The notes under the pieces: generated by a model
Databases searched by the model: none
The model's input: only the letters and a program-made list of their open reading frames with translations
What the model was told of the DNA's origin: nothing
In this document: piece by piece, positions 13,286 to 61,620 of the stretch
Layout: every line of letters starts with the position of its first letter
Numbering within the stretch: the first letter of the stretch is position 1
Origin: Leucoraja ocellata
Lineage: Eukaryota
Direction of reading: 5' to 3'
Assembly: GCA_036785375.1 (NCBI GenBank)
Contig: JAWMAR010000123.1
Span: forward strand, 3,472,001 to 3,536,000
DNA: 64,000 nucleotides
Program-made: the position numbers and the translations under genes

Positions 13286-16200
13286 ATTGTTGGGAGGGAT
13301 AAAAAAAAAAGTAAATCCATTAAGCCTGATATTTAACATGTGGAGTATATTCTAATTAAGAAGTGCATGCTCTGAAGAAATGTGGATGTATTTAAATTAG
13401 TCGGAGCTCTTGCTACTCCAATTGTTTTTGAGTAAAATATTTGCACTTGATGAAGTACATTATAAATAGTGCTAATTTCCCTCCATATAGTGGTTGATAA
13501 ATTAATTCCAAGCCCAGAATGGCTCCTATTAATGTTCTTTTGACCAGACAGAATAACAACTTAATTGTACTCAACAATTTGTGCTATTCTCTAAGTGAGG
13601 ATATTATGTAATTTATTTTGTGAACTTTTAACTATTTGGACAGTTTATTGATGTACCACTTGGATAGCTTATAACCCAATTAAATGAACATTGAATTCTC
13701 CAGTTTTAGACAACTTCAAACAAACCCTACAGCCCCCTCTGGGCTCCACCCACCCCGTGCTCCACCTGGAATTGCACCTATTTTTTTCCTCCACCTACAT
13801 TCCTTTCTCTAGCTTCAAAATTTGCAACTCTTCTGTTCTTTCGTCTCACACCTATCTTTTCATCTCTGCCCCTTGTCCAACCATCTGCCTATCGTAAACC
13901 CCTCACCTGTGTTCCCCCATTATCTGCCATGCTTTGTTAAGCCTCTCCTTTCTCCCATATTCCCCCATTTACCCCCCCCCCCCATCCCTTATAATCAGTA
14001 TGAAGAAGGGCCCTGACCCAAAATGTCACCTATGCAAGTTCTCCAGGGATGCTGCCTGACCCACTGAGTTACTCCAATACTTTGTGTCCTCCTTAATATA
14101 GCCTGTGAGGCTGTGAGGTATCAAATGTAGCCAATAATTTTAGTCAGAAAAATATATTTTGGGTAAACAAAGGCTTTAAGAGAGAAATTTCAGAAATCTA
14201 GTGAAATATTGTGCTTGGGAAGCATACATGGGGGGACACAAATATTACATGGAAGCTTGCATTCTATTTGGCATTGCTATGTATTAATAATAAATTAAAA
14301 TGTGATTATTTCAAAGGAACACAAAACAGCATCAATTCTCTGGCTACTTATTTAGCAGGATTTTAATTTATTGCATCAATTTACTGACAAATAGTTTGGA
14401 GTGTATTTTTAATCCCTGCATCGATCCTTACCTATAACTATTGGAGCAGTTTGGTAGTTGAATATGAAAACAACAGGTTTCATTTATTCAAGGAACATAT
14501 GATAAATTGCATTTGTCATTCAGTAATGTGTTCTCCAATTTTCCAATTTATTTCTGCCAGCAAAGTGAATCTCTACCCATTACTTGAGTGTTCTCTTACA
14601 TTTGATGTTTCACACCCCTAGCGCATCCGGGTCACTAGGTAAAGCTTTTGCATTTAATTTTTGAGCGCAATCAGCTGCAAGTGAGAAATTGAACTCTTTG
14701 CTTTTCTCCAACTGGTGTTCTTAAATGTGTGGGAAGGAATTGCAGATGCTGGTTTACACCAAAGATAGACACAAAAAATGTTCCTTTGAAGCTCTGGAGT
14801 CTTTCAGCATTGTGGGCTCTTCTACATATTTATCAAAACCTCTCCCTCTACCACAACCCTTTGTTCATCTGAAGCTGCCTGATCAAGTGCAAAATATCAT
14901 CCTTTTATGTTTAATTTGCTGCCTAAGCTTTCTTCTACCATGCATTTTACCTTCACCAATCCAAATTTACTTTATTGAAAGTCTTTTATGATTGCCGCAT
15001 TACTTATAGCATGCATCTTAATTGCTTGAGGAAAGTTAAACCTGCTGATTCTTTGTTTAAAGTAATTTCTTTATTGTTAATGACACTCTGAAGGTCTGAT
15101 TAATAGGAGTTGTGTGTTTCTTAAAGTTCTTTATCATGTTGCTAAGCTAGGGTGAATCGTATTGTATGTTAATCGAGTCTAGATGTGAATGGTGAAAGGT
15201 CCATTGTTTCTGCAGACTATGGTGTGGTTCTTAATATTACCTATCCTATTTTAGCAAACCATGGTCCAAGTAATGGCTTGGGTTTGATAAAGTGATGCAA
15301 TTATATAGACAATTTATAAACAGCTTCAATTATATAAACAGCTTTAATAAATTAGGTAGGAAATTTAAAAGTGGCCATGGTAGTTGGAAGTCCTTTAGGT
15401 TTGAGGGTTATATTAAAGTTCTTGAAAAAAGTAATGTTCGCAATTATTTTTGTCCTGTTTGGTAAGCATGTCCCTTGCCATAAGTGTACCGCATGCAAAT
15501 CTTTACATCGTTAAGCAAGGATAAATGATAAGTGACCACAAATTAGCTGGCTATAAAAAATGGGATTTCATTTTAGTTTCGGAAGCATGTTTAACATTTT
15601 GTTGTATCATCAATTGAAACTGAGTTTGTGCTGCCAGCTTGGTAAGATATTGTAATCAAAAGGGAAACTTATCTTTCTTACAACAAAAGTTTATCTCTTT
15701 GAGATTTTGGAAGCCAGTCTAGTTTCACTTGGCATTCTCCCAAATAAAGCAACCAACCTTAGCACTTGTACTCTCACAAATACTTGGATCTGATACTTTA
15801 GTGGGAATTATTTCCTAATTTCAACTTCCTTTGCAGTTAATTTAATACTAGGGTGTCATGAATGGAGTACATAATAATAATAGTGATTCATATTTGCACT
15901 GACAAAGGCAAGATTATTATAGAGAGCTGAAACTTTTCTCTCACCATAAAGTGCCCACCCATTTTAAATTCCTCCCTATTGATTTGCTATTATCACCAAT
16001 AAATTAACAGATTATACAATGTGGCCTTTTAACTGCAAACTTCTGTAATTTTGTGCTCAAGCTAATGGCTATCTACTACAGTTTCTCTTCATCAGGCCAA
16101 CTAACTTTAAAGTGTTATGAAACGTGCTTGATTTGAAACCAGAGTACTTTGCCATTCAGTAAGGTCCTGATGGATCTTCTTTCACTGCACTTCCCTGCCA

Positions 16201-17477
16201 TATCTCATGATTTTCTTAAAATCCCAAAATATATCTGCCCATACTCAATTGAATGGGCACATCTAAAACATACTCAATTTCTGTTTCATCAGCCACATTC
16301 TGGCCATTCATTTGTCTACAACAGATTCTTTGCCTCCCCTTCATTATTTGTATTGCCTGCAGGTGAGGAAACATTGGTGTTCCCTTCTCCACGTCATTGA
16401 TTTCATAAATATTTAAAGCCCAAGCGTGGCTTTTTTAATATCTAGCTTGCCACATTCCTTAATTTTAGTCAACCTTAATTTTATAATCTCACCTTGAAAG
16501 CTTTTTGAAAATCCTGATACATTATACTCTCCCCTTCAACCACCAAAAACTTTGGAATTATGTTTATTGAAGGATATATCCGGTTGTCCATTAACTGTGC
16601 TTCTGAAGGTAATAACATGCATTTTGTAATTTGGATATAGATTTGCTTGCGTATTTAGTTTAACAATTGGTAGAATGTTTACTTTAATTATAAGGTGTGC
16701 AGAATGCAGATCAGAGGTTCTCACTATATTAAATGGTTCAGAGCACCTGTGAAGTTTCCATTTTGTCCTGGCCAAGTTTTTAAGTTACTTGAAGTAATCA
16801 GTGGTACAGGATGTATTATTACTGCCTGAAAATGCCACCTTGTTGTCAAATTTAGCTTGGCTTCAGTGGGGAGAATTGCTTTTAATGGCACAGAATGAGA
16901 AGAACAAGATTCCCCGAGTAGTTCTAAGCTGCCTGCAGCAGCTGTGCTCTGTCGACTGAACAATTTGTGAAACTGCTAATACTTTTTGCTGTCAATAAAC
17001 TTCAAAAATAGACTTCCGTAACAAAAGGATAATTCTAGTTTAACTGCTAACAGAGCAGTCGGAGAACTTTATCGGCCAAAATCATAAATGCATGCAGTCC
17101 CAGTGGTTGTTCCAGCAAAAAAAATACTTTCCCATTATTGTTTGCTTTGGTTGGCATGGAAGCCTAGGAGTTCTTACCAGCATAAACCACACAGCTGACT
17201 GCCAGAAAAATCTGCTTCAGTGTGAAAAATGTAATGTACTTAAAATATATTGGAGAGTTCGCGTCAGAAGTGATGACTGCATCAGATGTCGGTGATAAAA
17301 ATGTGCAGAAAAAAGTGTGTCGCAGCTGAGTGTCCTATCATTTGGACAGAGTATCAGTTTCCTTTGGTCCAATTGTGTTTTGCTAAGACTGTATATAGAT
17401 GAGTGAAATGAGTAGCTAGAGAGAGTCCCACTGCATCTAACATGAATAACCACTGAAGCTGAGGTTAATATTTCAAA

Positions 17478-17634
17478 GATAAACACAAAATGCTGGAACA
17501 ACTCAACAGGACAGGCAGCATCTCTGGATAGAAGGAATGGGTGATGTTTCGGGTCTCCAGCCATAACGTCACCCATTCCTTCTATCCAGAGATGCTGTCT
17601 GTCCTGCTGAGTTACTCCAGCATTTTGTGTTTAT
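17478..17634. repeat. Palindromic pair of PLE terminal repeats (~70-bp arms)
   Basis: ataaacacaaaatgctgg...gaatgggtgatgtt / aacgtcacccattc...ccagcattttgtgtttat. Confidence 0.85.
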
Positions 17635-19989
17635 TAACATTTCAAAGTTCTTTAATTAGTGTTTAAATATTTAATTTTCCATGCCTTGCAGTTAATAACT
17701 TTTTACTTTTACTCTCCAACATGTAGGTCATTGGATAATAAATGCTTTCAAGATTTAGATCAAACTAAACTACATGCTCCATTTAATTAATTTATTTTGC
17801 CTCAACCTGTCAGGTGGTGGATTGTTTTTTGGATTGTGCTGTGTTGGCTCTTTAATGTATACACACTTTCAAGTTTTAATTCTATTGTAGATAGAGAATA
17901 TTAAAGCAAGTTTCCCCTTTAATTAATCAGATTGCTGATATTTGTTTTTAAAAACTATACTTTGAAGTTGGACTTTATTTTGGAGCATGAACAGTTAGAT
18001 TTTGGCACTTTGATCAAGTTGCAATGTGAACATTGTAAATTAAAGGAATATTAACATTTGACTATTAAATAACACGCACCAATTATTTGAATAGTCCTTT
18101 AGGCTGCACAGATATGTGGGTGTGCTGAAATATGTCGAATATGTAGGATTGAGTGGAGTAAAAATTGATATGTGCTTATAGTTTTAATTAATTTCTCTGC
18201 ACGAGGCAAGGATCATTCCATAGTTAATGAATCTTTGCCAGCCTACATTAGGTGGATTATTTATTCTGCTTTCTCCTTTTTGTCTTCGAGTCATACTGCG
18301 TGGAAACAGGCCCTTTGGCACAACTTGCCCACAATGGCCAACATGCCCCATCTATACTAGTGCCATCTATCTGCCTTTGACCCCTATCCCTCTAAACCTA
18401 TCTTATCCATGTACCTGTCTAGATGTTTTTTAAATGTTGTGATAGTACCTGCCTGAACTACCTTCTCTGGAAGTTCATTCCGTATATCTAACACCCTTTG
18501 CCCCATGGGTTTCGGATGGACAAGATTTCATTTGTTGAAGTTAACAACAGTCTCATCAAATATTTAGATGCCATGTAGGCCACAGGTCACTAAGCGTTGA
18601 TCATGCTTTCTCATGTTTCTCGGACTGTCAGGTTTGTATGCATGTATGCCTTTGGATTAACACAATACAAAATGTTCAGATGCCCTAAAAGTAGTGTATC
18701 AGGTCTATAGTTCCACTTAGCTGTGCAGCTGTAATGTAAAACCTTTATTAGTCGTTCTTAAACCGTAATCTTATATTGATGCAACCTGATTCCACTGTCT
18801 ATCTGATCATTGTGGGAGAGAAATAACATTTGACTATTGTAAGGAATAGTTAAATTCCTTACATTTAACTATTGTTAAATGTAAGGAATGAAATAGGCTT
18901 TATTTCTGTGTTTCTAATTACGGGGTGGAGCTATTCAAGCCTTTCTGTGTTTTTGCATGCTTATTAAAGGATACAGTCTATTTATGTTGTGGGGTAAACG
19001 ATAGATTTCAAAATACCTTTAGCTGAATTTTAACAAATATAAATGCAGGCACTGTTGTCTTTTTGGTTGTTCCTCCCCATCTTGTGTACCTGCTTCAGTC
19101 CTCTGAGACTGAAAGTGTGTAGTAAGGAACTGCAGATGCTGGTTTAGGCCGAAGATAAACTCTGATCTTCTGACTATAGCCTCTGCTGGAGTCTGCATTC
19201 TCTACTATTTGTAGCTGTGGTTTTGGCTGTCTAGCCCCATGGTTTGGGATTTCACGATCAAGTCATCATCCTTCCATTAAAAGACACTCTTTGTAATGAA
19301 ACTCTTTGAAGTTTTGGTCACCACTCCCAATCTTTGCTCTCACAAGGCATCTGGTTTTGCTAGGCATTTGTAAAAAAATCCCTCGGGGCATTTTCAAGAC
19401 ATATTGACTTTGTTAAATGTTATTTTGATTTTTAGGGCTGTGAAAGTTGTTCCTTGAGATTGCAAGGAAGGTTTTCTTTTGGAAATTGCCATTTTATATT
19501 TGTGTTTTTATGGTACTGTGCCTCTGACAGTGTTGGGGATGGGGGAGGGGAAACGGACCATGTCATGATAGTACTATTTCCTGGCAGGGACACAAACACG
19601 TGTTTGGATTGGAGTTATTGATCTCTGGCCCGAAAGAAATGTCAGGAAGTGCTGCGTACATATATTCATATAATGTGAAATCGGGCCCTTCGATCCATCT
19701 CATCAATGCTGACCAATCTGCCCCATCTAAGCTAAAGATAGACACAAAATGCTGGAGTAAGTCAGCGGGACAGGTAGCACCTCTGGAGAGAAGGAATGAG
19801 TGATGTTTTGGGTCAAGACCCATCTAAGCTGCTCCAATTTGTCTGCGTTTGGCCTATATCCCTCAACCTTTCCTAGCCGTGTATCTGTTCAACTGTCTTT
19901 AAAATGGTGTTATTGTACCTCCATTGTAGATATACATCTGACAGGATGTATATCTACCTCCTCTGGCAGCTCATTCCATATACCATTTC

Positions 19990-20330: not shown

Positions 20331-21661
20331 TATTATAGTTCTACTTGGAGTTTTGTGCTCGTGGAGGAAACCTCGGATGATGTTGATGAGTTCCAGGTGT
20401 TTTTGTTCCTATATTTGCACAGAATAACTCGTGAGCACAGTTAGGCGCATGACGTGTTCTTTCAACTGGACGAGAAGTGCATAACATGTTTTTGGACTGC
20501 GGCATCTCTAATTATCAATCATTGTTTAAAATTTTTAAAGTCCACGTGCCTTTTTGTTACAAGTAACTGACCAAGGTCAGTAAACAAAATGCAATGATGC
20601 AAGTGGCTTTGCAGATTGCAACACTTTTTGAGGCTATTCATTCAAAGCACATTTAGCTGCCCTACCATGCTGCTGTGACTATGTCCCCAGTAAACACTTT
20701 AGCTTCTGCACCAGTAAATTATTTGCTCATTCCAAAATTGTTGTTCAGTTGCTGTGCAGTTAATACACATACCTCTGAGAGATGAACATTCTATTAATCT
20801 TAAGGAAGACCCAAAATGCTGGAGTAGCTCAGTGGGTCGGGCAGCATCTCTGTTAATTGTGTTCATTGTCAGCAATCGGAGTTCGGGTAGCAGTTAATAT
20901 ATGTCGAGTGTGGGATGGGGGAGGTGGAGGTTGAAATATTTGACATGTATTCAGAAAAGACTAAACAATGGTTGCATTCTTAGATCATTTTGGATCATAT
21001 TAATGGAGCACTGTGTAAAATAGTGTACCCCAATTAAAGCCATTACTTTTTATTATTGAATTAGTAATGTATTTAGAAAAATCTGGGTATCATTAATAGA
21101 GAAATTGTAAATCATTTCGACCTATTTAACAAAGGATCAAAAACATTTTAGAAATTATCCTTTTCTTTATAAAAATAGAATTGTACAAAATGTTTTTCAA
21201 GTTTCTTTGCCCTTTTAACTATAAGCAAATAGCTGATCCATTTGTGGACTTGGGCCTGTGTTACCAGCTCTGTATTTCTTGGTTGACAGGAGAAGTAAAT
21301 GGATTTAACAGGAACAAATGTTTGAAGGAACATAATTCTAGCCGCAAGACATTATGTGTTTGACCAACATATAATTATTTAGTGTTTAAGGTGGAGTGAT
21401 ATGTGGAAAGTGGGTTTGCAAAAGCCAAATGGATTTAAGAACTTTTTCTAAAAGTAAAAATTGATTTCATTTATTGCCTATATTTACAAAGCATTGAAAA
21501 GAGCTATAGAATAAGCTGTGTATGAAAGAACTGCAGGTGCTGGTTTAAATCGAATGTAGATTGCTGGAGTAACTCAGGCAGCATCTCTGGAGTGAAGGAA
21601 TGGGTGATATTTCGGGTCGAGAATCTTCTTCAGCTTGTCACTGAACTCGATTAATCACAAT

Positions 21662-21822: not shown

Positions 21823-23985
21823 TAATTTTAGGGAACAACTGTTCTAACATGACCAAACAAGTTAAGAAATTCCAAGTGACTGAGGAAAATATCTAAATTA
21901 CTACTTGGCTTTTAAACTGAGTGATCCAAATTACAACAGGGCATTTCTCTTCCTTTTTGAACTGCAACGGGGAAATCTCTGCTTTCCACGTTTAACTATT
22001 ACAAATGTAGTTAAATCTTTGTGGCAAAGAAAAGCATCCTGATGTACGTCAGAGCCGACTGAATTTTGGATTTTTCTGGATAAATAATGCAACTTGTGTA
22101 GTCATCTCACTGTTTAAGTTTTTAAATCTTTAACAAATCCAGAATCCAGCAAAGATTCTTGATTAGTACAGGTGTCGGGGGTATGGGGAGAAGGAGAATG
22201 GGGTTGAGAGAGAAAGATGGATCAGCCATGATTAAAAGTCAAAGTGGACTTGATGGGCTGAATGGCCTAATTCTGCTGCTATAATTTGTGAGTTTATGAA
22301 CTTGAGAATGGATGATTTCTCCACCCACTTCCCACCTGCATTCCCATTGCCTAGCTCTTTCTTGTGTAGAAGACTTACTTCTAGCCCAGATTAGAACCTG
22401 AATAAAATAGTGAAGGAAATTCAGAGTTTGAGTTATACTTTGTTTCAAAATGAAGTAGCTTGGCACTGCCAAATTATTTCTATGTATGGTACCCAGTAAC
22501 AGTATTTTTAATTTGTGATGTGGAATTAATGTTTAGACACAGTAGATGTAAATATGTGATTAGACTGAAAACATGGTAAATGACTAGAAGTTAATTCTCT
22601 TACACTGGAAAGAAAAATGTGTACAACATTTGTATAACCTATCAGAACTTGGCTGTTGAGGGATTGTCAAGCTGCCTTGCTCCCTCTTGTACCGTTTTGT
22701 GCAGTCCTGCAGTAACAATTTAGCAGATGGCACATACATTTTCCTGTATCAAAGTCAGTGGCCAAGGGAAGCTGTTCTATTTACTCAAATACAAAGTTTG
22801 CCCCTTCCACAATACATTATTTGGCATTAGTTTGGGGGCATGCTCTTTAGTGACACTAAACTTTCTTGAAGCTTTCTTTTAAGCTCTTATAAAGTTCTCA
22901 TTTAGATCCCATCTGCTATTCTAAACGTTCTCTCCCTTCATCTATGAAACTGAAATTAGTGTGCCATTTACCACCGAGGCAACACACAGCTGAGACATTC
23001 GTTCTCTCCAGAGATGCTGCCTGTCCCGCTGAGCTTCTCCACCATTTTGTGTCTGCCCACAGCTGAGACGTGCATAGGCTACTCCAACAGTTCCTGACAA
23101 AGCAAAACTCTGCCACAAATATAAACATGAGATTGAGATGCTTGGAAGGGAAAACATTTTTTCTCCCAAATTGCACGTTGTTCCGATTTGGAAATATATC
23201 GCCATATATCAGCTGGAATTTAGTACTGGCATTCTCTCTTTTGTGGCACAGGGGGTGTGTCTTCCTCCGTGGTTGAAGATGGTGTCTTACCTCGAGGGTA
23301 ATTAGGGATGGCCAATCAACTCTGTCCTTTCTCGTGACTCACATCCCCCACAAATGAAAGAATTAAAATAAATATTTGAAGTAATTAGGAAAATGTTGAA
23401 TTATGGGTGCATCATTGCAACCAATTGTTTCCCATTAATACAAGGGGTTGTTGTGGTTTTAGATCAGCCCATGAATCATGTATGAAACTCAAATTTCACT
23501 GTACCTTAATTGGTACATGTGACAATTAAATTGAATCATGAATCTTGGTTGGAATATTTATCTCCATATTTATCAATTGGAACATTAGCTGGTGTAATCT
23601 TTGGTTTGGGGGAAAGGTTTAGAGGAAATTGGGATCTTGAGGTGATGTTACAATGTAATGAGCATAGAGAACTAGCCTGTTTCCTCTGTGTTGTCTGGTA
23701 TTCCTTTGCACATTCCTTGCTAAATTATTTAGAAAGCCACATAAGAGTCTGTCATTTGGCTGCTTATGATCCATTTGGATGAAGAACGCTGATTCCCTTC
23801 CATGATATACAATAATGGATTAGATTGGATTTGCAACAATTTGGTCATTTCAGGATTACTGTTACTGATAATTTCCCCTAGTTTTTTTTTTTTAATTTCT
23901 CACTTGCTTCTGTATCTGTGCCATTAATCCAGGACTCTGGGTTACTAGTCATGATATAGAAGATAGACACAAAATGCTGGAGTTA

Positions 23986-24211
23986 TGCCCCTGTCCCACT
24001 TAGGAAACCCGAACGGAAACCTCTGGAGACTTTGCGCCCCACCCAAGGTTTCCGTGCAGTTCCCGGAGGTTGCAGGTGGTTGCCGGAGGTTGCAGGTAGT
24101 GGAAGCAGGTCGGGAGACTGACAAAAACCTCCGGGAACTGCACGGAAACCTTGGGTGGGGCGCAAAGTTTCCAGAGGTTTCCGTTCAGGTTTATTAAGTG
24201 GGACAGGGGCA
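23986..24211. mobile_element. MITE (non-autonomous DNA transposon, possibly PIF/Harbinger-type), 226 bp with ~85-bp TIRs
   Basis: TGCCCCTGTCCCACTTA...TAAGTGGGACAGGGGCA; flanks TTA and TAA; interrupts the gctggagTAActcagc motif of a PLE terminal repeat. Confidence 0.85.
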
Positions 24212-27200
24212 TAACTCAGCAGGACAGGCAGTGTGTCTGGATAGAAGGAATGGGTGACATTTTGGGTCAAGACCCTTCTTCAGTCATTAATATAAACAAT
24301 TTCCCATCCCCTGTAGCCATAGACTAGTTTTTATATATTTTTTAAAGTTTAAAAAAAAAAAATTTGACCACATCCTGAAAGGAACATATTTGGTTAATTG
24401 CAGCATGGCTGCTGTAGGTTACAAGTTGTTTGACTTAAGAACTGGATTATTTCAATGTAGTAAATGGAAAGATATGAACATGTTAGATTGCTAGTTTCTT
24501 TGTATATTCTTTAATCTGATCAAATTTGACAAGAGCATGAAGATCCTTACAATGGTTTGTAATATCATGCAAGGGTTTAAATGGAGATAATGTCAGGAAG
24601 AGTTGTAGAATCATTTGTGCAACAGTTCTAATTAAAAATATAACTTGAGGACACTTGCTCCTATGACATGAGCTGATAATGCATGATGTTTCTCGAAGGA
24701 AATCAAGTAGTGAAGAGTGTGCATTCTCAGACCGTATCATTTTGAGACATCCTGGCATATTTCCTGTAATCTGATTATATTGAGGTAGGCTTAACGGTGA
24801 ATAGCTGGATGAAGGATAGGGCTCCATGTCCTTCAGACCAAATCATGAGGTTGCTGAAAAATTGTAAAAAAATGTCAAGTTCACTTGAATAAGTGTTGGC
24901 CTTGAAACTAATTTTTTTGCCATCTAATGCTGCACCTTCACTCTTTTTTAATCATGAATTTCCAATAAACTTTGTAGATCCTGCTTGTTGTAAACCATGG
25001 ATTATATGAATTAAAAATACATTTACTTCTGTTTTACTTGTAGGTTCCCTTGACTTTTGAACTATGCCTTGTGCATTCAAATTTTATTTTCTGATCGGCA
25101 TTGCTGCCTATTTTTCTTCCCCCTTTTCTCTATTTTATCTCCTAATATTCATTACCTATTTTCCATTTAATAGTCATGGAGAAACGGTCATCTAGCTAGG
25201 AAGCAGACCCTTCGATCCAACTCGTCCATGCCGACCAAAGTGCCCTATCCAAGCTAGTCCCATTTCCTAAACCTTTCCTATCCATTTACCTGCCCAAGTG
25301 TCTTTTTAAAAGCTGTTGTATTACCTGCATCAACTACTCCCTCTTGCAAGTTGTATCATATATGCGTCAACCTCTGTGGAAAAAGTTGCCCCACGATTTC
25401 CTATTAAATCCTTTGCCTCTCACCTTAAGCCTATGACCTCTAGTTCTTGATTCCTCAACCCTGTGTAAAAGACCCTGTGCGGAGTTTCCCTATTAAATGC
25501 CTTTTGCTTTGTGTCATTCAGATGCCATTGATTTCCCCATACTTCGTAGAAGCTTTCATTTGTTGTTAAAAAATAGTTGTCGTATTTAAAGGCATTTTGA
25601 CAGATGGCTTTTTCATTCCAGCAAGTGAGAGAATCGCTAATCAAAGTTTGACCTTCATTCAAAGTGTAGAATTATGGAGAGGTGGTGCACTCCAAGCCAC
25701 TTTATTACTCCAGGTAAAACCAAGAGGGATCAGGGAGCTGTGATAGGACTTGTCAATTTTTAATTTAATTTCTGACACAATCTAAAGTAGTAATAACAAA
25801 AAATAAGACTGAATTCATGGTAAAGGCCACTGTAATCCCTTGTGATGAAATAATGTGGTAATGCATAGGTCTTACGCATGTTTGCTTAACAAAAATTAAA
25901 ATAATTGTCCTTTACAATTATTTATTAATGGGTACAGAATTAAATAATCATCCTTTACATGGATTACATCCTTATACAGTGTCACCGAATGGCGTAAGTG
26001 GGTCGTATCAGGAAGAGACAATTTACTTATGCCACTCTATTTTATGTACCAGCTAAGGTCATCCCTTGGCATTCTTCAATTGAACGAATATGCAGTCTTA
26101 TTACTCAAGCCCTCCAGTCTTGATAACATTGTCGTGCATGCTTTCTGCACCTTCTTTAGCTTTATCACATCCATCCTATATAGTATGGCAATTAAAACTG
26201 CGCACAATCATCCAGATGCGGTCTCGCCAACATCGGCTGCAATTGGCACATGAAGCCCCAATTCTTGCACGTTGCTAGTTTATCATTCAAAACTTAATCA
26301 TTTAAAATCTAAGTCCCCTAGCTGGCATTATGGCATTTTAAAATGTCTCTGAATCAGTGGTCAAGTCCTGTAGATTGCAGTCTAGTAACTTCACTGTGCT
26401 ATTGTACCCAATGATGTGGGTGTACATATGTAGATATATGGTTTTAAAAACTTTTAGATGTTTGCATTGTTGGAAACCAATAAATCTCCTTGCAGTCCAA
26501 CCTGGCAAGGTATCAAATAAAACCACATTTTGTGCAAAGTTTTTTTTACTTGGCTTTGACAGTATTGGTGAGCTGTTCAAACAAAGTTTTTTGGCAGCTG
26601 CCTCTATTTGAAACTGGTTCTGATTACCCAGAAGTAAAGGTTGAAGGATTTGCTAGTTTTGCAGTTTGCTGAACTAAATAGTAATCCTGAATTATCTACT
26701 GCCCCACTTTCAAAATAGTAGATAAAGCGCAGGAAATGGGACTGACTAAGAAATTTGCCCCTTCAAACCACTTTAAAATCCTTACACTCACCTTAAACCA
26801 ATGCCGCCTTGTTTTTGATATACCTACCATGGGGGAAAAAGTCTGACTACACATTCTATCTATGCTCTACTTGTGTACTTCTGATGGAAAGTGGCCAGTT
26901 TGTATTCATTTCTGAATAGTCAAGCTGCTAGTTGAAAAGTTAATGTAAAGTTATATTTTTTAATTTCAACAGAGCATGTTGGAACATTCCCAACCAGGGA
27001 AGGATATCCTTTTGGGAAATGAGATCTGACGATTTAAATGCCAATGTAGACCACACATCACACTAGAATGGAGGAAGTATAACTATCAATAATCTGCCTC
27101 TATATGATAATGATCAGGTTATTGAAGTGAATGAAATGTGAAGCCTTGCAGTGTGCCAGATAAAGTAATATCAGCAGAATACTGATTTTCATCGGGGGTT

Positions 27201-28232: not shown

Positions 28233-29317
28233 CTTTTGCTATTTCCAGCAAAGAAACTTGGAGCTTTCCTAGATTCACAGTACATTGCTCCAGGAATACA
28301 ACAAGGCCATTGTGCTGGATCAAGTGTAAAAAGCTGGCACTTTTACTGTTCACTGATGTTGTTATGGGAGATCTGGTCAGATGCAACGTTTCCAAATTTG
28401 TGGATTCTGCTTTCTTTTTGTTCCTCTTCTGTTCCTTTTACCTCTGTTGAAAACTAATTAGAACTTTGTCAGTCGTGTGAACCGGCTCAAAGTCAAACGG
28501 CTCCTGCAGTCTTTCAATCTTTGTACATTAGTGTGAAACAAAAAATTGGGTGTGTGTCTTCAGAGTTTCAAAAGATAAACCCTTTGTTTTCAGAAATTTT
28601 TCTGAAGACTAAAATTTGGTCTGATGTTTTCTATTTTAAAAGGGCAATTTTAATTTTCACGTGTGCAAATGCAGTTTTGCCTGTAGTCAACTTGTTATTT
28701 CTTTCTTCAGAAATGTCAAAGGTGGCCTCAGAATTTGTTGAAAACATTTTATATGACCAATTATAGGCAGCTGTAGAAAATAAATAATTTGTATTCCCAT
28801 TAACCGAGTAATACTGAATTAAACTGAATAATTGGTGTCAGTGGCTTGCAACATTTCAGCAGGCATTAAAGAATATACATGTTTGATCAGTGAAGGGGAC
28901 ACAAGGCTTTTTTTTGTTTTTTTGAAACCTTTGTGATATAGTATAGATTATGGGTGTAAAGTCTAGTTCAAGCTGAGGTATTTTTATGAAGACTGTTTGT
29001 ATTCTTGTATCCCTCTCATTACCACACCTCCCCCAGCCAACAATGGGCCATCATGGGCTCCACCCTTCCTGAGGTCATCTGTTGTTTTTGCCCTGATTTG
29101 GTCTTGCCTTTGCTCGCCTCTTGTTTCCCCACCCCAAATCTCTACTTTCAGTCTAAATAAGGGTTCCGACCCGAAACGTCACCTATTTTTTTTTTTTTCC
29201 TCCAGAGATGCCGCCTGACTCACTGAGTTACACCAGCTTTTAGTGCCTATCTTTTCTAAATACATCACTGATGCCAACCAAACAATTTAAGAGGACTAGT
29301 TCCTACAACCCCCCTAG

Positions 29318-29575: not shown

Positions 29576-31571
29576 AATGAATGAATGAATGAATAAGTTT
29601 ATTGGCCAACATTGTTCACATACAAGGAATTTGCCTTCTTGCTCCGCCCACAAGTGACAACACGACATACAGTGACAGTTAGGAATGACACATGAAACAT
29701 TAAACATTTAATGTACTCGGTGACTAAGCTTCCATGACTCACTTAGGTGGAGAATTCCAATGATCTTAATCAATCCATTGGGTGGAGAATTCCAATGATT
29801 CTGATTCCAATCTCAAAAAAATTCTTATCTTAATCCTGAATACCTGATCCTTTTTTTCAATGCACTGCCTCTTGGTTTTATTAACCCTTCTCATGAGAAA
29901 CATCTCTGCATTTACCCTGTCAAGCACCTGAGTATATTAGGAAATGTTTTCTTAATGCCCCCATTCTCTCCTGACTGTGTAATATTAGTAAGTAAGTAAT
30001 TTTTATTTATATAGCACTTTTAAATCAAATCACGTTGAAGCCAAAGTGCTTTACAGAGAAGAAATTAGATTTCCATACATCCATATAAAATAAAATAGTG
30101 CTCATTGTAAAAATTGTGCTGCTGATTTTAAGAGTTTCAAATAACAAAGTACAAACACTGATTTCAATAGAACTCAATTAACAATTTTAGAACAGACTTG
30201 TAGTCCAGATTTTTTTTTTAAGGCAAAATAAGGCTATTTTATTTTTAAATATTAAACATATACAGTGACACTGATATGCACCCCAAAATGAGTTAATAGG
30301 AAAGAAACAAGTATCTTTGTGGGTTCGGCTTTCTTTGCAGCTGCGATAGTCCTAGTAGACCACTCCAGATCAAAATTTGCTTTTTTTTTCTAGAACTCTT
30401 ACTTACTAGCTTTTTCGTTCAAGGTTTGAGAAATATTCAAATTCAACCCATGAAACTCCAAATTTAGTTTTTAAAGTTGGCATGGAAGCTGGTTTCCTTT
30501 AGAGTGATACACAACAGGCCCATAGAGAGCAAATTAAACAAAATGCTGCAGCAATATCAGCAAATTACCCAGCTGTCTTCGCAGTGACTGCACCATGGAT
30601 GATAAGGGAAGAGTCATGATGAACAAAAGGATTCTTTATCATTACGAGGTAACTCGAGATAAAATGTCCTGTCCATTTATCTATGTAAATTCAAAAGAAA
30701 ACATTTCCGCCCATTAATCAAACTCTTAATTTCCATCCCAAGAAGCCAGTTGAATTTTAATTCTAGCTGTAGGTGACCCGAATGGAAATGTAATGTCTCT
30801 CCACTTCCACTGTCACCACCACCCCAACTGCTTTGTTCTTTCCTTTTTAATCACTGACGACACTGCTTAGAAATGACAGTGGCACAGATCTCCAAGTGCA
30901 GTTGCGTGCCGTGAATTGGACTGTAGGTCTGCATAGTCTGTTGTAATTTCAGAAAATCCTTGCAACTGGTTTATTTCAACATGTGCCCTGAATTATTATT
31001 TTTTTTTTTGCTATGAGCAGTCGGTGCTAAATATAGATGTGCAATGTTTGAGGAAACCAAATGAATAACAACTTTGTTTTTTTGTACGTATATTTTGACA
31101 CGGTTTGGGAGTGGCCAATATTGCTTAGAAACAAAGGTGAATCTTGGCAACCATTTTAAACATCCTTCTATTTATACCTGCGTCATTAACCAACAACAAA
31201 GGTGTTCCACGTGGAGACCAGCTAAATTGTGATATTTGTTGAAGAGCCTGCTAACGCAACTACCAGACGGCTATGGGTGTGACCATTACGTATGCAATAA
31301 TTGGGGAATATTTAGGTGGAGGTATGAGAAGAGGGAAAGTAAATCATTGTATATATTAGTCTTTTGAGGTGAATGTAATTAATATTGATAATCTATGTCC
31401 CATAACCCCCTTGAATTTATTTGAGTACAGTCTTTTTAAGCATTGAATAGCCAGGATAAACTATAAAAACTTTAATGTTTTTTCAAATAAAGCAGCTTCA
31501 AAGAAAGCAAATATTTGAGTTTGAAGAATTCCTATCCGAAACATCACCTGTTCCTTTTCTCCAGCTGAGTT

Positions 31572-32490
31572 AGGGTCTCACTAGGGTCTCCTCGATATCC
31601 CGCAGCTCCGCTCTTACTCCCCCTCCTCCTATTCGTAACACGGACAGAGTCCCCCCCCCCCTCACCTTCATCAACATCAGCCGTTGCATACAGCATATAA
31701 TCCTCCAACGTTTTTGCATACTCCAACGGGATCCCACGACTGGCCACATCTTCCCATCTCCACTGCTTTCCGCAGAGACCATTCCCTCCGAAACTCCCTG
31801 GTCAATTCATCCCTTCCCACCCAAACCACCCCCTCCCCAGGTACTTTCCCTTGCAACCCAGGAAATGCAACACCTATCCTTTTACCACCCTCCCTCGACT
31901 CCATCCGAGTACCCAACAGTCTTTCCAGGTGAGGCAGAGGTTCACTTGCACGTCCTCCAACCTCATCTACTGTATCCGCTGTTCCAGTTGTCAACTTCTC
32001 TACATCGGTGAGACCAAGCTCTGGCTCGGTGATCGTTTCGCTGAACACCTCCACTCAGTCAGTCTTAACCTACCTGATCTCCCGGTGGCTCAGCACTTAA
32101 ACTCCCCCTCCCATTCCCAATCTGACCTTTCTGTCCTGGTCCTCCAGTGAGGCCCAGCGCAAATTGGAGGAGCAGCACCTTATATTTCGCTTGGGTAGTT
32201 TATACCCCAGTGGTATGAACATTGACTTCTCTAACTTAAGCCCTTGCTTTCTCTCTCCTTCCCCTTCCCAGTGTCCCGCTAGTCTTCTTGTCTCTGCCTA
32301 CTTTCTATCCTTGTCCCGCCCTCTCCCCTGACATAAATCTGAAGAAGGGTCTCGACCCAAAACGTTGTCCATTCCTTCTCTCCAGAGATGCCGCCTCACC
32401 GCTGAGTTACTCCAGCATTTTGTGTCTTCTTCCTCCAGCACTGTCTATATATTCGGTATAAACAGCATCTGCAGTTTCTTCACACACATA
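31572..32490 (+). mobile_element. Penelope-like retroelement, 5'-truncated: Cys-rich linker + GIY-YIG endonuclease remnant + terminal repeat
   Basis: Frameshifted peptides AFRRDHSLRNSLV..GTFPCN..KCNT..FTCTSSNLIYCIRCSSCQLLYIGETK..GDRFAEHL..VAQHLN..LEEQHLIFRLGS..GMN (ORFs 31684 and 31851) are the PLE GIY-YIG domain; followed by the repeated terminal sequence. The Cys-rich linker suggests the Neptune-type group. Confidence 0.88.
32339..32369 (+). ncRNA. Minimal hammerhead-ribozyme-like motif in the PLE terminal repeat (mutated, probably inactive)
   Basis: CTGAAGA-A-GGGT-CTCG-ACCC-(A)AAA-CGTT. The consensus across copies, CTGAAGAAGGGTCTCGACCCGAAACGTC, fits the CUGANGA/stem II/GAAA/GUC core. Confidence 0.55.
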
Positions 32491-33704
32491 TATACTTTGT
32501 TACCTCTGAATCTGCATTTAATAATATCTGAAATCTCAAAAAATGCGACTTAAAGGGGTATAGAAACAATGCTGGAGAAACTCAGCGGGTGAGGCAGCAT
32601 CTATGGAGAGAAGGAATAGGCGGTGTTTCGGGTCGAGACGCTCTCCTTTCTTAAACAAAACAAATCGTCGTTCAATGGCTTCCTCGTAACATAATCTGTT
32701 ATTGTATTCAGAAAGTGGGATTATTTTAGCAAATATGTAATCTTTATGGAATTAAATTAAGATGATTATATTTTCAACTTTAGGTAAACTTCAGATAAGA
32801 TTTTTGCAAGTGTGTTCATGTTGCACCTGATGTGTCAACTTCAACCATTCAAGACTGGTCTAACCGGAATTAGGAGCTATTCTAGATGAGGGTTTAGTAA
32901 GAGCACAGAAAATGAAGCTGTTTTGTAACCAAATCAGCTCCAGTGGATTAGTGAGCACAATAGTTTCTTGTGTTGCATATGCTCTTTTTTGGATAATTCA
33001 GCCCCATATTATTTTCACCAGTTTACATTATTGTCTCTAAGTTGCACAAAAGTACAACCTCCATTCACACAGCATCTCCTGTGTTATGGAAATAACTACG
33101 GTCTACATAATTTGACACTGAGCCACATGATTAAAATATTAAGGCAGTTACCAAAATGTTGGTAAGAGAAAGGCTCTAGACATTGTTTTAACGGGTGAGA
33201 GAGCTGCAAGAATTAAGGGATTAAATAGTTAAAAGTGGGTTGTTTTAACAATGGAGGTATATGAAGCCGCAATGGGAAAAGCACAGATCTCCCAGTATTT
33301 TAGAGGAGGTTCCCGAGTGAGGCTATTTAAGGTTTTGAATACGAGGATGATAATTTATTAATTAATACGTTGCTCTGCTGGAAGCCAATGTAAATTTGGG
33401 ACCATAAGAGTGACTGATGATTAGAATTTTTTGCTAGTTATTATTTGAGCAACATAGGCTTAGGTGAGCTCATGTTTGTAGACTGTGGAAAATGGGAGGC
33501 TGGCCAGGGGAGCGACTGCAGATTCTCTAATTCTTAAGTCTGTGCAACCTGTCAGTGTAGCGACTGCAAGGCTGAACTTGTGCAAATCTGTTTTCAAATC
33601 TTTTTGCCACATTGCCCAATGAAGCAGAAGTCCTGAAAGAGGAAAGCAAAACAAGCTGCTGCAGTACACTTGTGTTCCCATAATTAAAGAGCCATTGACA
33701 GACG

Positions 33705-33905
33705 CCAAAGGGTAGAGTGACTCAGCTGGTCAGGCAGCATCTCTGGAGAAAACAAATAGATGGTGTTTCGGGTCGAGACGAGGGTCTTGACCCGAAACAT
33801 CACCCGTTCCCTTTTCTCCAGAGATGCTGCCTGACCTACTGAGTTACTCCAGCCTTTGGTATCTGTCTTCAGTTTAAGCCAGCACTACAGTTCCTCCCTA
33901 CACAT
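33705..33905. repeat. Palindromic pair of PLE terminal repeats
   Basis: Left arm ends tttcgggtcgagac and the right arm starts gggtcttgacccgaaacatcacc. Confidence 0.8.
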
Positions 33906-41782: not shown

Positions 41783-41783
41783 T

Positions 41784-42470: not shown

Positions 42471-42517
42471 CAATGATTAACCTGGCTATTTATTCTCCAG
42501 TGTATTTATGTATAATG

Positions 42518-45757: not shown

Positions 45758-47919
45758 ATATTTGATCATATTAATTCTGCCATCTGTCTATCAACTCTTT
45801 CTGCTGACTTTCATAGTCTCTCATAGTGATTTGTAACCTTACACCATCACTAAGCTATGATCTGTTTTTCATTCTAAATTATTTCTGTACTTTGTTTTTT
45901 ATTTACATGTACTATGATGTGGAGCGTGACCTGCTGCATCTTTCTGGTCTGAAAAGCTTTCCTATTACTGTATTTGCTGACCGAAACCCTATTGCTTACA
46001 GCATTTTTGCTGACAGGAAACCATTCTTCTTTGACCACATTGCCTCTTTGTTATTTGTCTTTATCTTGACAGTAAACCACAAAGAAAAAAACATTTTATT
46101 TAAAAAGCACTCTGTTCCTAATTTACAGACATTGCTTTTTGAAATTTAGTAATCTGAACTGCATCCATATTACTTTGTCATTGGTTTCTTATAGACGACT
46201 TAGCATTTCCCAGTGATGTGCAGTTTGTCTCCCTCCCCAACACAGCTGATGTGGCTAAGATTGAGAGATAATGATGTGTTAGTCATGAATGTGAACCCAT
46301 GTCATTAGAGCCCACTGGAGCACCAATTCAACATCATCCCACCGCTTAATGCAGCCTCAGCTAATTGAGCATTTAAAATAAGTAGGATCATGCACAGTAG
46401 TATTTTACGATCACTGGTTGCATTTACATGGATGCAATGAATAGATTTTCTGTGTTTGTGAAGATGATATTTTAGTATTCTGTGCAAAATGTTGTCATTG
46501 TTTTTACAATTGCCACCCAAGGGTCATTTCTTACTGTTTCAATAGATGCAACTTTTTTGGTAAATGGTTTTGCTTTTTTCTTGACTTTCATTAAGATATA
46601 TACCAGTTGCCTAGCTGCCTTGTGATTGCTTGGGTCAGACGTTGACCCTTTCACCAGGAAGTTGAAGCTGACCACCAGTTAGCTGTCTGTGATAAAACTC
46701 CAGGTTTGACAGCTTTCATGAGAGCTAACTGTCACCACCAAAAAAAAATGTAGCCCTTTGCTTTTCTGCGAATGATAGACCAATGTTGCATTCACTCCTC
46801 TTCTCTTATCTGACATCCTTTTGTCTCCTTTTCACCTCTTGTTTTGTCACTTACACCACCCATTGTAATCATGTATTGTCTTTTTGCTGACTGGATAGCA
46901 CTCAACAAAAGCTTTTCACTGTACCTCAGTACACGTGACAGTAAACTAAATTGAACTGAACATGCCCTCACCTGTGTACACCTATCATTTGCCAAACGTT
47001 GTCCTGCCCCCACCTATCTCCTCCAGCTTTCTCATCCTTACTTCAATCACACTGAAGACGGATCCCAACCCAAAACTTTGTTCATTCCATTCACAATGTT
47101 GCAAGACTTGCTGAATTCCTCCATCACTTTGTGTATTGCTTAATATTCCAGCACCTGCAGTTACTTGTGTGTCCATGGGGCAATCGGTAGTGGGAAAGGG
47201 CAGATTTACACCAGTGAGGGTGGCAGTTTACTCAGTAAGTGCTGAGGAGCACATTTGTACAGTAGCCGTGTGCTCAATGAATAATGAGTCATGGAATGAG
47301 TGTTGCATGCATACTTTTAATCTCGATGTCCTTAGCACTATTTAATAATGTCTTATTTTTTAAAATGTCTTTGCACATTGCTCAACTGATAGCACTCCAA
47401 TTGCATCAGCTACGAGTTTCTGTCTGTTCAGCTTAAGTGATTTCCATAGGTTTCTCCCCGCAAGTAATGCCGTTCCCAGCTATGAAAAGAATTTCTGCTA
47501 TGACCTATTTCCTGTAGCTATGGCGACAGCCTATCGTGAGATTTGTATTGGGGAAAACACTAGGGAGTTATGAAAAATGACATTTCAATGCATAACTGAA
47601 GATCAAAGATGTTTGAGGAAACCATTGTCTAGATGAAAATTTGCATATGAAAGGACCACTAAAAATTTGAATATAGGTAAAAATTTTGGAACAAAAACAT
47701 TAGGTTGTTTTTGGAGTTCAAATGAGCAGACGCAATGAGAGTTCATTTTGCATACTCCATTTCTGCTAAACTTGTTCACTAAAGGTGTGTCTGGCTTATT
47801 TGCCAAAACATCCTGAAGTCTTAATGCTGGGCACAGTTGTATTTATTCTCAGTGTAGGTATTTCAATTTCTAACATCCCAATGTACCTTGACTGAGTTCA
47901 AAGCTGATGGCCTGCTGAT

Positions 47920-52806: not shown

Positions 52807-52959
52807 TTTGCGGAGGCAATAACCAAAAAGCAAGTGGAACTGGGGAACTATATTGGAAACGGATACAAGACGGCATTGAGTGAGGAACGTAGGCGGTATT
52901 CCTTTTTGGTGGAAAGGCAGTGTTCCGTTGCCAAGAATAACATGGTGTACCACAGCAGG
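52807..52959 (+). CDS. BAIAP2: BAIAP2 coding exon (exon 7 equivalent, IMD signature), 153 bp, phase 0/0
   Basis: ctgcag|TTTGCGGAG...AGCAGG|gtaagt; FAEAITKKQVELGNYIGNGYKTALSEERRRYSFLVERQCSVAKNNMVYHSR with the IMD ALxEERRR signature. Confidence 0.96.
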
Positions 52960-54429
52960 GTAAGTATTTTGAAAATCCTTTTAAAATGTATTTGTTATCA
53001 ACCGCAACAGCTTTTCAGTAATTTTCAGAGAGGAATGACGATACAGGCAAGTGTTTAAACAATTTATTTTTGTTCTGTTTCTCTACTGACCATCTAATGG
53101 TGGGGATTAGTTCTACACATTTCAGTAGGTCTTTGTTGACTTTATTTCAGAAGAACGTTAAATTAACTGCCCAAACAATGTCTCTCTGTATTTGAGCATC
53201 ACACCTGAGCTCTTTTTGTTAAAGGATGCCTATCAGTTTGCATCTGGCCCACAGTTTAGTGCCAAATCCCTGGGGAAGCTGTTTTTTCCCCTTCTAATTT
53301 TGAGAGGCTACCAACCATGGACCCTTTCCAATCTTGCTTTCTCGGAAAGGTCAATATTCCACAGCCATTAAGTCATGCAGCAGGGAAACGGGTCCTTAAC
53401 CCAATTTGTCCATGTCGACCATGTCCAGGATGGCCCATCTGAGGTAGTCCTATTTGCCAGTATTTGGCCCATGCGCCTCTAGACCTCTCCATGTATCTTT
53501 CCAAATGCCTTTTAAATGTTATCGTCCCTGCCTCATTAGAGGTTTGTGATGTGGAAATAGTACCATGGAAAATTGTTGTAGTTACACTGGTATACACTCA
53601 CAGTAGATTAATAATATAACTTTTTTTGTTTTGAAGTGAAAATGTGCCACTCTTTGCAAAAGTTCTCTCACCAGAAGTAATTTTTGGTACCTTTCTCTTT
53701 AGCAATTTCCTTATTGCTCTCTCCTCTTCTGAAGAAACTCGTTTCCTCCCATCTGCACAGTTCTGTGGGAGACAGTAATCTTTTACCACTTTCAAGTTGA
53801 AACGTGACAAGCATTTAAAAGGTTACCGTGACATTCTCAGCAGATTATTTCTCCTTGAAGGGTCCTACTGACAATTCTGAGTCGATCCTCACCAGATTAC
53901 ACTCCCTGGTTTTAATGAAAACATTCGGGAGCAAGTGTTCAGTTCAGTTTGTTTGTTCCGCTGGTCTCGGGGTACAGAGGTCAATTATATCATCCATAAC
54001 CACCATTCATTTGCAACCATTTAATTTGCCACCGATCCAAAGATGGAATCTTACATTGCAAGTAACTGAGCCATCAGGAGATGTTTATCTTAATTAAACC
54101 GTCAAAAGTTATCATTTGAAGGATGTTCAGACAATTTATGCTCAAAAACAGTTCTATTTAACATATAACTAGCGGGACTGCTTTATTTATTTGTATTAGT
54201 AGATTTGACGCATTGTCCAAAATTACTTACTTTTCTAATTTGGTTTAAAATGGGTTGCATTTTCAAAATAAGACAAAGGTACAGTCGTATAAAAGAAAGT
54301 GGGAACCTTTGTGCATAGACCATGATTTTGTGCAAAATCCAGGATTTCCATCATGAGTCCCTCGGGTTTGACATTTAATGCTTGAAAAGTTACCCCAATA
54401 AAGTATCCCAGTCACCTCCTTTATATTTT

Positions 54430-54682
54430 TGTGTGAGAAGGAACTGCAGATGCTGGTTTAAACTGAAGATAGACACAAAAAGCTGGAGTAACTACATCTC
54501 TTACTTTGTCTCATCCCACTTCCTCTAAGTCCAAGGCGCAGCTATGGGCACCTGCATGGGCCCCAGCCTTGCCTGCCTCTTTGTCGGGTACGTTGAACAA
54601 TCCCTGTTACAGGCGTACAATGGTCCTATCCCCGATTTATCTCCTGTCCCGTTGAGTTACTCCAGCCTTTTGTGTCTATCTC
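54430..54682 (+). mobile_element. Penelope-like element deletion derivative: inverted terminal piece + RT fragment + terminal piece
   Basis: SHFL*VQGAAMGTCMGPSLACLFVGYVEQSL is the PLE reverse-transcriptase GxAMGxxMxPxxAxLF motif; flanked by oppositely oriented copies of the terminal repeat. Confidence 0.8.
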
Positions 54683-54777
54683 CCTTTATTTTCATAATGG
54701 ATGTGAGGCTTGTAGATGGCATAGTCCTTTTGTGCAGGAATGACTTTCCAGAAGACAGAAGGAGCCAACAAAGGTAT

Positions 54778-58118: not shown

Positions 58119-60653
58119 TACAAATATTTTAATGTTCCCCACCATTTTTTTTGGTTCTAGCCACAGCGAAAGAAGTTTCCAAATAGAAGGATTAGATAGA
58201 CATTTTCAAATGACAATAACTGGTGTTAATTTTCTTTTCAAATTGTTCAGGGAATTGCACCAACACGGATATATAGATCTGTGGATTCTTGTGAAGTAAA
58301 CTCTTGGTGTTATTCAAATGTGCTCCACAGTTTATATCTAGAAATTCAGAGCAGCTCCAGTAATGAAATAAATAGTCTACTTATTTTGAACCCGGACATA
58401 AATAGCAAATGCGTAGGTGAGCTTTTCAGCCTTGCACCATTTCTACTTTGAATACTGTGGACGTACAGTCCCTTATTAGCTCTAATAATAGAACGCATAT
58501 CTGAATGGAACATCATGATTTTTTATTTGAAGACTGAAGAAAGGTCTTGACCCAAAACATCGCCTATTTCCTTCGCTCCATAGATGCTGCCTCACCCGCT
58601 GAGTTTCTCCAGCAATTTTGTCTACCTTTGATTTTCCAGCATCTGCAGTTCCTTCTTAAACTTTTATTTGAACTTGCTATCTTTGACGATGCCTTTTATA
58701 ATTTGGCCGAGTCCAACGATGTTTTTATCAAGTGATTCTTTAATGCTGCAGCAAGGGAAATAACTGACTTCATCCTGTTGAGTAATGCCTTCCAACAGCT
58801 AATCATTGCCTGGGAATGACAGTGAACGTCAAGTGTTTTGAGACTAAAACCTATCAGGGAAGTAATTGCAAAGTGCTTCACTTGGCAAAGGGAAGGGTTT
58901 GCAACAGTTTTCTCAATCCACACACTGCATATTTTGTGCTTTATTTGCTCATTGGAATCTACTGCAAGCATATATTTAATGCTTCTGCTCACTGTCCATC
59001 TTCTCAGGAGGACTGAACATAGTGAAAATCTGTGCATGGGCTTCCTGTGATGCCTTTCTGTTGATTTCATTCAACTCTAAATTGTGTCTAATTTTTAGTA
59101 ATTGGTTTTGTTTTGCTTTGGAATTGCTTTAGAATTCAGATTTCTTTTTAGATTTACCCTGCACAGAAAGTTCTGCTATAATGTAATAGATGTATTCCTA
59201 AGACATAGCAAACTGTTTTATAAACTAGTTGTCTCGATGGGGAAAAGGGAATTGGGTGCTAGAGAATTTCAGACGCTCAATAACAAAAGTTATTTCTCCC
59301 ACAGGATTTTCAAAAATAAAGGTTCTTTTAATAGCTACAGGTTTAGTTTTGTTATTGCAAGCTAAAAATACTAAAGGTTGTGTGTTACATAGCTTAATTC
59401 GGGTATCATTGCACAAGTGTAGATAGAAGTGATTCTTATCAATTTCAGTGCCACTCATGATGAACTGTGTTAAGAGATAATTGTGACTGATTACTGCAGG
59501 GAGGTTACATGGAAACTCTTTCATTTTCATGGATTGTTTTGTTTTTTACACAGGACAGCTTTTTTTCTGCTTGTCAATTTCCAAAGTGACTTTTAAATGG
59601 TTTTCCAATTCCTGACAGAAATCGGGTGATATTCAATTCAACCCATATAATGCAAATATGTCCCCTCATTCATCTATCACATTATATTTAAACAGTGTTA
59701 TTGAAAGCACAGGTTATAGCCAAACTGTACTTGGTTTTGTCTGGAAACAATTATATCTAAAGTTGTTCAGTGGGAATTGCAGTCTATTGCCACCAAATTT
59801 TAGTTGTTCGAATAAGGTTTCTGTTTTAATGCAGATAAGAATGAGTGAATACTTATTTTGAATGATGTTGGACTAATTTCTGTCCAATTGCATGTTTCAG
59901 TGCTTAGATGATTTTTTGCAGTTAGTTGAAGGCAAATAATATGTAATGATTGCTGATGATTTGTATGGTTGACTCATTATAATGAACCACATCCGAGGCA
60001 TAATGTAGAATTACTTCCAAAAATAGTGATTTTTTTTTCCCCTTGATTGGCTAACATTTTGCACCAAATTCTACTACTAAACTTGAAGATAACTATCCAT
60101 TCTTATTTTTAGCTAGCGAATTATCCCATAAGCTCGATCCTTTGTGAACTATTCGTATACAAACCAGGATAGCTTTTGCTACGTTAATGCAAGATTTAAG
60201 AATATATTAGTAAAAGTACACCCAAAAGTGCTGACTGTGGGGCTCCATACTCTCGGAATATTGCTATGACAATCTGGAATACGTAGCATTAAGTCTTTTA
60301 AGATGCTGTTTGGCACAGGAAAATACAAAGAAGAGACATTGGCGCTGAAAGGCAGCAAGCCTACCGCTGCACCACTGTGCTGGTGGTTTAGTTAAAGCTA
60401 TAAATATGAGATTTACAGGAGGCTTGAAACAAGTGGACGAAAGATCCACAACCAGGCATTGAACTTGGAAAAACAGATTGAGGAGCAAGTCATGAAGTCT
60501 GATGATTACAAATGTTGTTTGTAACAAAGACAGTGAAATACTAGTAATTTTTGACTTTATCAATCCAGGGATGTGAGTTATGTGCTGTATATTTTGTAAT
60601 AAGCTGTATTGTCGGAGTTAGATACTGAATGATTATTTTTGTTTCCATTTCAG

Positions 60654-61185: not shown

Positions 61186-61410
61186 CAAGGATGGTGAATC
61201 TGTGGAATTTATTGCCACAGACAACAGTGGAGGCCAAGTCGATGGATATTTTTAAGGTGGATATTGGCAGATTCTTGATTAGCAAGGGTGTCAGGGGTTA
61301 TGGGGAGATGGCAGGAGAATGTGGTTGAGAGGGAAAGAACATCAGCCATGATTGCATGGCGGAGTAGACTTGATGGGCTGAACGGCCTAATTCTGCTCCG
61401 GGAACTTGTG
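61186..61410 (+). mobile_element. CR1-like LINE 3' end
   Basis: Same family as 47920-48355 and 22145-22300. Confidence 0.78.
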
Positions 61411-61417
61411 AACCGGT

Positions 61418-61620
61418 TAGACACAAAATGCTGGAGTAACTCAGCAGTTCAGACAACATCTCTGGAGAAAAAGAACAGGTGACATTTTGCGTTGGAACCC
61501 TTCTTCAGATTCAAATCACCCATCTTTTTCTCCAGAGATGCTGCTTGACCCACTGAGTTACTCCAGCATTTTGTGTCTACCTTTGGTATAAACCAGCATC
61601 TGCAATTCCTTCCTACACAA
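61418..61620. repeat. Palindromic pair of PLE terminal repeats
   Basis: tagacacaaaatgctggagtaactcag ... ctgagttactccagcattttgtgtcta. Confidence 0.82.

Follow-up and report, generated by a model that had tools for sequence, protein, structure and literature searches.

The introns of BAIAP2 in this genome carry a short recurrent motif, and the question is whether it is a ribozyme, where it comes from and whether it could act within the host gene. In an initial annotation of the 64,000-nucleotide stretch analysed here (G000:C123:3472001-3536000, referred to below as the window) it had been described as a minimal hammerhead spread by a Penelope-like element (PLE). The best explanation of our data is that a Neptune-type Penelope-like retrotransposon with a minimal type I hammerhead in its pseudo-LTR (pLTR) has left the repeats behind as short, decayed 3' ends, and that the motifs lying in the BAIAP2 introns are broken and likely inert; we put the probability of this reading at about 0.88.

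The proposed identity of the host gene was confirmed on the plus strand by matches of IMD and SH3 exons, for which BAIAP2 was the best PDB match. Plus-strand IMD exon matches extended from 4.7 kb upstream of the window start to position 55247, with an IMD exon at 52810..52974 (+), further IMD matches at 1808-1912, 35560-35628, 39265-39402 and 55164-55247, and an SH3 exon within 62541-62888. None of the exons in this mapped subset was overlapped by a motif copy. We also noticed an inverted second set of BAIAP2 IMD exons on the same contig, about 210 kb downstream (G000:C123:3742783-3802746), in which a transposon remnant showed 98% identity; either a haplotype was merged with the contig or an inverted duplication took place recently. 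For other IMD genes, too, two copies were present, in these cases on separate contigs. An intronic stretch of the window at 49960-51178, with several overlapping open frames on both strands, is probably another repeat.

All ten motif copies previously listed in the window were recovered at their positions and on their strands. An ungapped scan for the motif, allowing up to nine mismatches, matched the window 12 times and none of its 50 dinucleotide shuffles, and a profile of the pLTR end detected 37 fragments (20 plus, 17 minus) with none in the reversed-sequence control. A strict hammerhead descriptor gave no match in the window, and no hammerhead covariance-model family was among the nine Rfam matches obtained there at E values up to 5. 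The consensus given earlier needs correction in its GAAA box, which is found in only three of the ten listed copies (21603, 29153 and 33781); the other seven read AAAA.

The GIY-YIG remnant noted earlier was found again at 31701-32147 (Pfam E=0.006, under the cut-off). It belongs to a 5'-truncated Penelope-like element at 31550..32482 (+; tblastn E 3.5e-49), made up of the end of the ORF, a 3' pLTR with a hammerhead and a remnant of the tail, and positions 31550-32425 could be aligned with a full-length unit at 74% identity. The hammerhead copy in this pLTR (32339..32369, +) has lost G12, as have the pLTR ends at 14000..14098 (+), where C3 is lost too, 34338..34434 (+), 47052..47168 (+; absent from the earlier list) and 23954..24283 (-; interrupted by an inverted-repeat insert), and a solo pLTR end with a tail and an 11-nt target site duplication (TSD) at 58534..58659 (+), which starts 2 nt ahead of C3. 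The pLTR end at 29153..29260 (+) has lost G5 and G8, and the tailed one at 21521..21633 (-), antisense to BAIAP2, has a complete core, two of four stem II pairs and no helix I. Head-to-head pairs lie at 33692..33900 (16-nt TSD, one tailed arm, CUGANGA box absent from both arms), at 34608..34804 (12-nt TSD; the plus arm begins at the core, 34675, and has lost G12), at 61415..61615 (core on the minus arm, 61478-61508, G12 lost), at 17454..17642 (no CUGANGA box) and, in a decayed state, at 3336..3532. The window further contains an older decayed copy with three core changes at 36468..36601 (+), a pLTR end beginning within the core at 19726..19825 (-), and, at 54434..54683, an RT fragment (54505-54639) flanked by two pLTR-end pieces.

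Two other structures adjoin these copies. An element with 92-nt terminal inverted repeats and a short T/A-rich duplication (23980-24217), presumably similar to a MITE, is inserted inside the pLTR copy 24211-24283. A near-perfect palindrome of about 130 nt (21673-21807) adjoins the 21603 copy, and the weak, sub-threshold Rfam miRNA matches at 21643-21842 are due to it.

Outside the window, a young subfamily was reached by sequence walking outward from the GIY-YIG remnant. The same genome contains an intact 3,946-bp tandem unit in which a complete motif accompanies a 1,221-aa ORF for RT and GIY-YIG; contig C8 carries three hammerheads at a spacing of 3,946 nt, and the two intervening units are identical. 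L151/L152 (G000:C8, 5.606-5.617 Mb), L153/L154 and L155 represent young elements in tandem, whose ORFs are intact and whose units are identical. The ORF contains DKG and YIDD motifs, a GIY-YIG domain with two cysteines between its motifs and CX4CxxC in the RT-EN linker, and Pfam recognised RVT_1 (E 1.6e-6) and GIY-YIG (E 0.013), both below the curated cut-offs. We also observed a long proline-rich, low-complexity stretch ahead of the RT. The motif is situated 117 nt 3' of the stop codon and 164 nt 5' of the next ATG. Judged by its sequence, the element belongs to the EN+ Penelope-like elements. According to PMC8557442, a CX2-5CxxC linker motif characterises Neptune and Nematis; the clade here is probably Neptune, the linker motif being common to the two. 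No relative of the element was present in the viral contigs searched.

The majority profile of 191 core-spanning copies has the full core with an extra A after A9 and the G10.1-C11.1 pair, a stem II of 4 bp, a CG palindrome at 15.2-16.2 and a helix I of 2 bp, and the CUGANGA, GAAA and UH core is present in the family consensus and in the young copies. The strict descriptor gave 23 matches in 800 kb, against 1, 0, 0, 0 and 0 in five shuffles. By its sequence and place the motif is a PLE minimal hammerhead and a putative ribozyme, and the earlier description, which placed a type I hammerhead of the minimal kind, its helix III reduced to a palindrome, in the pLTR of a Penelope-like element, proved correct. 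The expected GUC cut triplet is found in the older subfamilies and is replaced by GUU in the youngest intact one.

It had been anticipated that stem II would covary across subfamilies. Within the genome no two-sided change was seen: loop II and the upstream sequence vary among the subfamilies, and the one substitution found in stem II replaces U-A by U.G. Relatives were then taken from 32 metagenome-contig loci, in which a relaxed scan that required stem II gave 11 matches. In an alignment of ten rows (six genome copies and four hand-picked relatives, two partly misaligned), a two-sided change was present in six of nine pairs, stem II having been demanded by the scan, and the covariation score of this hand-picked, partly misaligned alignment was reached by none of 500 shuffles. 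In relatives from other organisms (L181:1468, L202:1448 on the minus strand and L196:2195) the first box reads CCGAYGA, with U4 changed to C, and the stems are compensated. For the young motif, minimum-energy folding predicts a structure other than the hammerhead; by analogy, this would fit the report that cleavage in the anole element is assisted by protein. A 251-nt pLTR stretch folded no better than its shuffles (z -0.46).

None of the 11 core-spanning copies in the window retains an intact motif, that is, a complete core together with stem II and the palindrome. G12 is changed to A in seven of the nine full-length copies of the earlier list, one of which has also lost C3; of the remaining two, one is without G5 and G8, and the minus-strand one keeps the core and half of stem II, with no helix I. 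The partial copy at 33781 lacks the first box. G12 is the general base of the hammerhead (PMC6155905) and sits in a CpG together with C11.1. Across 242 copies, C>T and G>A changes at C11.1pG12 were equally common (54 and 61), and the same symmetry was found at three other CpGs; strand-symmetric change of this kind looks like neutral methylation decay. In a reference set of 120 stretches of 10 kb picked by position (1.2 Mb), 39 of 297 core-spanning copies were intact, and the absence of intact copies from the window is within chance (P = 0.21). Helix I was retained in 22 of the 38 intact copies with flanks. Extrapolated to the 3.44-Gb assembly, apparent haplotype duplicates included, these counts give approximately 63,000-112,000 intact motifs. 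Non-CpG core positions were slightly better retained than the flanks (0.94 vs 0.90), an excess that may reflect ascertainment or weak selection. Within the BAIAP2 introns, then, we see ordinary copies that are likely inert.

The initial annotation had further inferred that many copies of a self-cleaving motif, in both orientations, are transcribed as part of the pre-mRNA of this gene. Activity of such copies there is not supported: in the BAIAP2 transcript a copy would be a ribozyme only if it lay on the plus strand, minus-strand copies would not, and a complete core was found in none of the eight core-spanning sense copies. An enrichment of PLE ends in BAIAP2 was considered and rejected, the density of fragments in the window being ordinary (5.8 per 10 kb vs a mean of 5.3; 34.5% of random 64-kb draws reach the window count). 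In four IMD-family genes (307 kb), 66 sense and 56 antisense fragments were counted (p 0.42), and the intact proportions were 2/29 for sense and 2/21 for antisense copies, a small sample with little power; these four genes gave no signal, at low power, of selection against sense copies.

RNA-seq data were available for a related organism, in which about 12,800 of 12.9 million reads (approximately 1 in 1,000) carried the element end, and 95% of those reads ran on into unlike sequence. No pile-up of molecule starts or ends was seen in its raw reads, although none is to be expected where libraries are fragmented. The reads show passive transcription of such copies in the related organism, not cleavage. 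No RNA run was among the sequencing runs listed for the young element. In single-cell reads over the motif (L152:1648-1740, runs X21 and X22) the minus strand was 4-5 times commoner, while bulk reads were even, and loose read ends suggest internal oligo-dT priming at the complement of the pyrimidine tract. The idea that the intronic copies cleave or regulate BAIAP2 pre-mRNA, singly or by mutual pairing, can draw on the 20 sense-strand fragments in the gene and on this read-through transcription in the relative; given sense copies that all lack a full core, an ordinary density and symmetric decay, we regard it as highly improbable.

The ends of the copies are informative about how they arose. 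The 290 copies with a core start comprised 71 with an inverted partner just upstream, 89 that run into the element body and 130 solos, defined by background sequence beyond about 6 nt upstream of the core. TSDs of 9-18 nt bounded 29 of the 244 solos examined, against one in the flank-swapped controls. Of these 29 solos, 21 start within -6..+5 of C3 and five at +41..+55, and three begin further upstream, with extra letters. We reject ribozyme cleavage as the origin of the ends: the starts cluster at the 5' edge of the ribozyme instead, none of the 29 TSD-defined starts is at the cut site and only one of 637 profile starts fell at the position after the cut. Nor are the TSD-bounded solos host exons spliced to an acceptor-like site, because their upstream flank is duplicated target DNA. 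An extra G at -4, a candidate for a cap-derived base, was present in 11 of 54. At the 3' end there were two end-point peaks about 30 nt apart, the copies stopping before or after an optional tail of about 30-37 nt. Other PLEs have been described with such a tail, and for EN+ elements tandem or inverted pLTRs and an optional 30-40-bp tail are characteristic. Exactly one arm was tailed in 84 of 103 head-to-head pairs, where half would be expected (p 3e-11), and 19 of 71 inverted copies were centred exactly on position 2.1 (both arms of one pair countable). A single TSD-like repeat surrounded the whole unit in 51 of 118 pairs, an uncontrolled count that includes a few false or duplicated cases.

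We suggest that reverse transcription of the element would begin at one of two tail sites and mostly halt at the 5' edge of the ribozyme, yielding solos of 100-135 nt, and that the head-to-head pairs would be made in one insertion event. To cut, the motif of the parent element may need either dimerisation or binding by the element protein, as reported for other PLEs. The sequence at the 5' edge fits what we take to be the initiator consensus, and in the subfamilies seen a pyrimidine tract and YAG lie upstream of the core; the 5'-edge stop could be caused by a transcription start, a splice acceptor or an RT stall. PMC4209133 describes a D. virilis intron whose end lies at helix I. A more specific version, which we offer tentatively and with the odds against it, is that the element RNA begins, or the RT run ends, exactly at the hammerhead 5' edge (initiator-like YYANWYY, also readable as a 3' splice acceptor). 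The 100-135-nt copies would then be strong-stop-like cDNAs, and the pairs would represent both strands of one staggered cut, primed from two tail sites and joined at the quasi-palindrome around position 2.1.

Rather than truncated full elements, the short copies could also be a SINE-like or retrozyme-like mini-element, non-autonomous, that propagates itself and has a fixed 5' end of its own. The clustering of 21 of the 29 TSD-bounded starts, the lack of upstream element sequence in 130 of the 290 core-bearing copies and the retention of YAGT ahead of the core, even though subfamilies diverge upstream, would all agree with this; however, the starts are spread over about 12 nt, and subfamily variants are common to solos, body-bearing copies and full-length copies, which makes such a mini-element improbable. 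Another possibility, which we consider unlikely, concerns the motif itself: it might be a relic in the shape of a hammerhead that is retained because it serves as a transcription start, a splice acceptor or a protein-binding site, and it might not cut even in young elements. The 2-bp helix I, the GUU triplet of the youngest subfamily and the competing fold point in this direction, as does the fact that the cut site is the end of no copy; PMC11167929 describes in vitro insertion without a need for cleavage, and RNA-seq data in which no ends fall at the cut site. On the other hand, all subfamilies retain the core positions and the palindrome despite variation in loop II and in the sequence upstream, and the anole motif does cut with its protein present (PMC11167929). 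Truncated ends of a Neptune-type PLE with a minimal hammerhead remain our preferred reading.

Compared with known systems, the family resembles the minimal hammerheads (min-HHRs) of metazoan PLEs, including fish Xena, Poseidon and Neptune (Cervera and De la Pena 2014, PMC4209133). It shares with them the type I core and its place in the pLTR, the extra nucleotide between A9 and G10.1, the G10.1-C11.1 pair, the palindromic 15.2-16.2 and the occurrence as thousands of dispersed single copies. A helix I of 4-5 bp, typical of those min-HHRs, was not found in the family, which has 2 bp only, as reported for D. virilis; the 4-bp stem II is another difference. The extrapolated load given above, haplotype duplicates included, compares with about 4,000 motifs in coelacanth and about 9,000 in Xenopus, counted by another descriptor. 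Poseidon of Anolis carolinensis (Frangieh et al. 2024, PMC11167929) likewise has a pLTR hammerhead, tandem units, an optional tail between two RT start sites and no RNA ends at the cut site. Its ORF starts within stem II, whereas here the ATG lies 164 nt after C3, past the tail, and the linker here, unlike that of Anolis Poseidon, has the extra cysteine motif of Neptune and Nematis.

Inverted-pLTR insertions of EN+ PLEs (PMC3846280, PMC8557442) also consist of head-to-head pLTR pieces with a palindrome at the junction, with one tailed arm and a single TSD around the unit (PMC3846280). The inverted units described here differ in being mostly about 200 bp long and without ORF, and in having junctions clustered at the ribozyme 5' edge. 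Non-LTR retrozymes (bioRxiv 10.64898/2026.07.22.740005) carry a type I hammerhead derived from PLE pLTRs, as here, and are reported in one chondrichthyan. They are head-to-tail tandem monomers, in contrast to the copies in the window, among which no such tandem monomers were found and which are dispersed solos and inverted pairs. Among the literature listings and passages searched, that one chondrichthyan was the sole case of PLE hammerheads in sharks or rays, and no paper dealt with copies truncated at the edge of the ribozyme or with the hammerhead of the present family; motif lists in the supplements of the retrozyme preprint and of PMC4209133 may already include it.

The motif is real, of a known kind and ordinary within BAIAP2, for which it has no import, the copies there being ordinary debris. 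The family is of modest value as a resource: a Neptune-type element that is intact and apparently young is present in the genome, and end fragments numbering on the order of a million, with sharp ends, record where PLE reverse transcription starts and stops. If the reading of the 5' edge as a start or stop is true, the young intact array would allow direct tests of how Penelope elements integrate and of what their ribozyme does.
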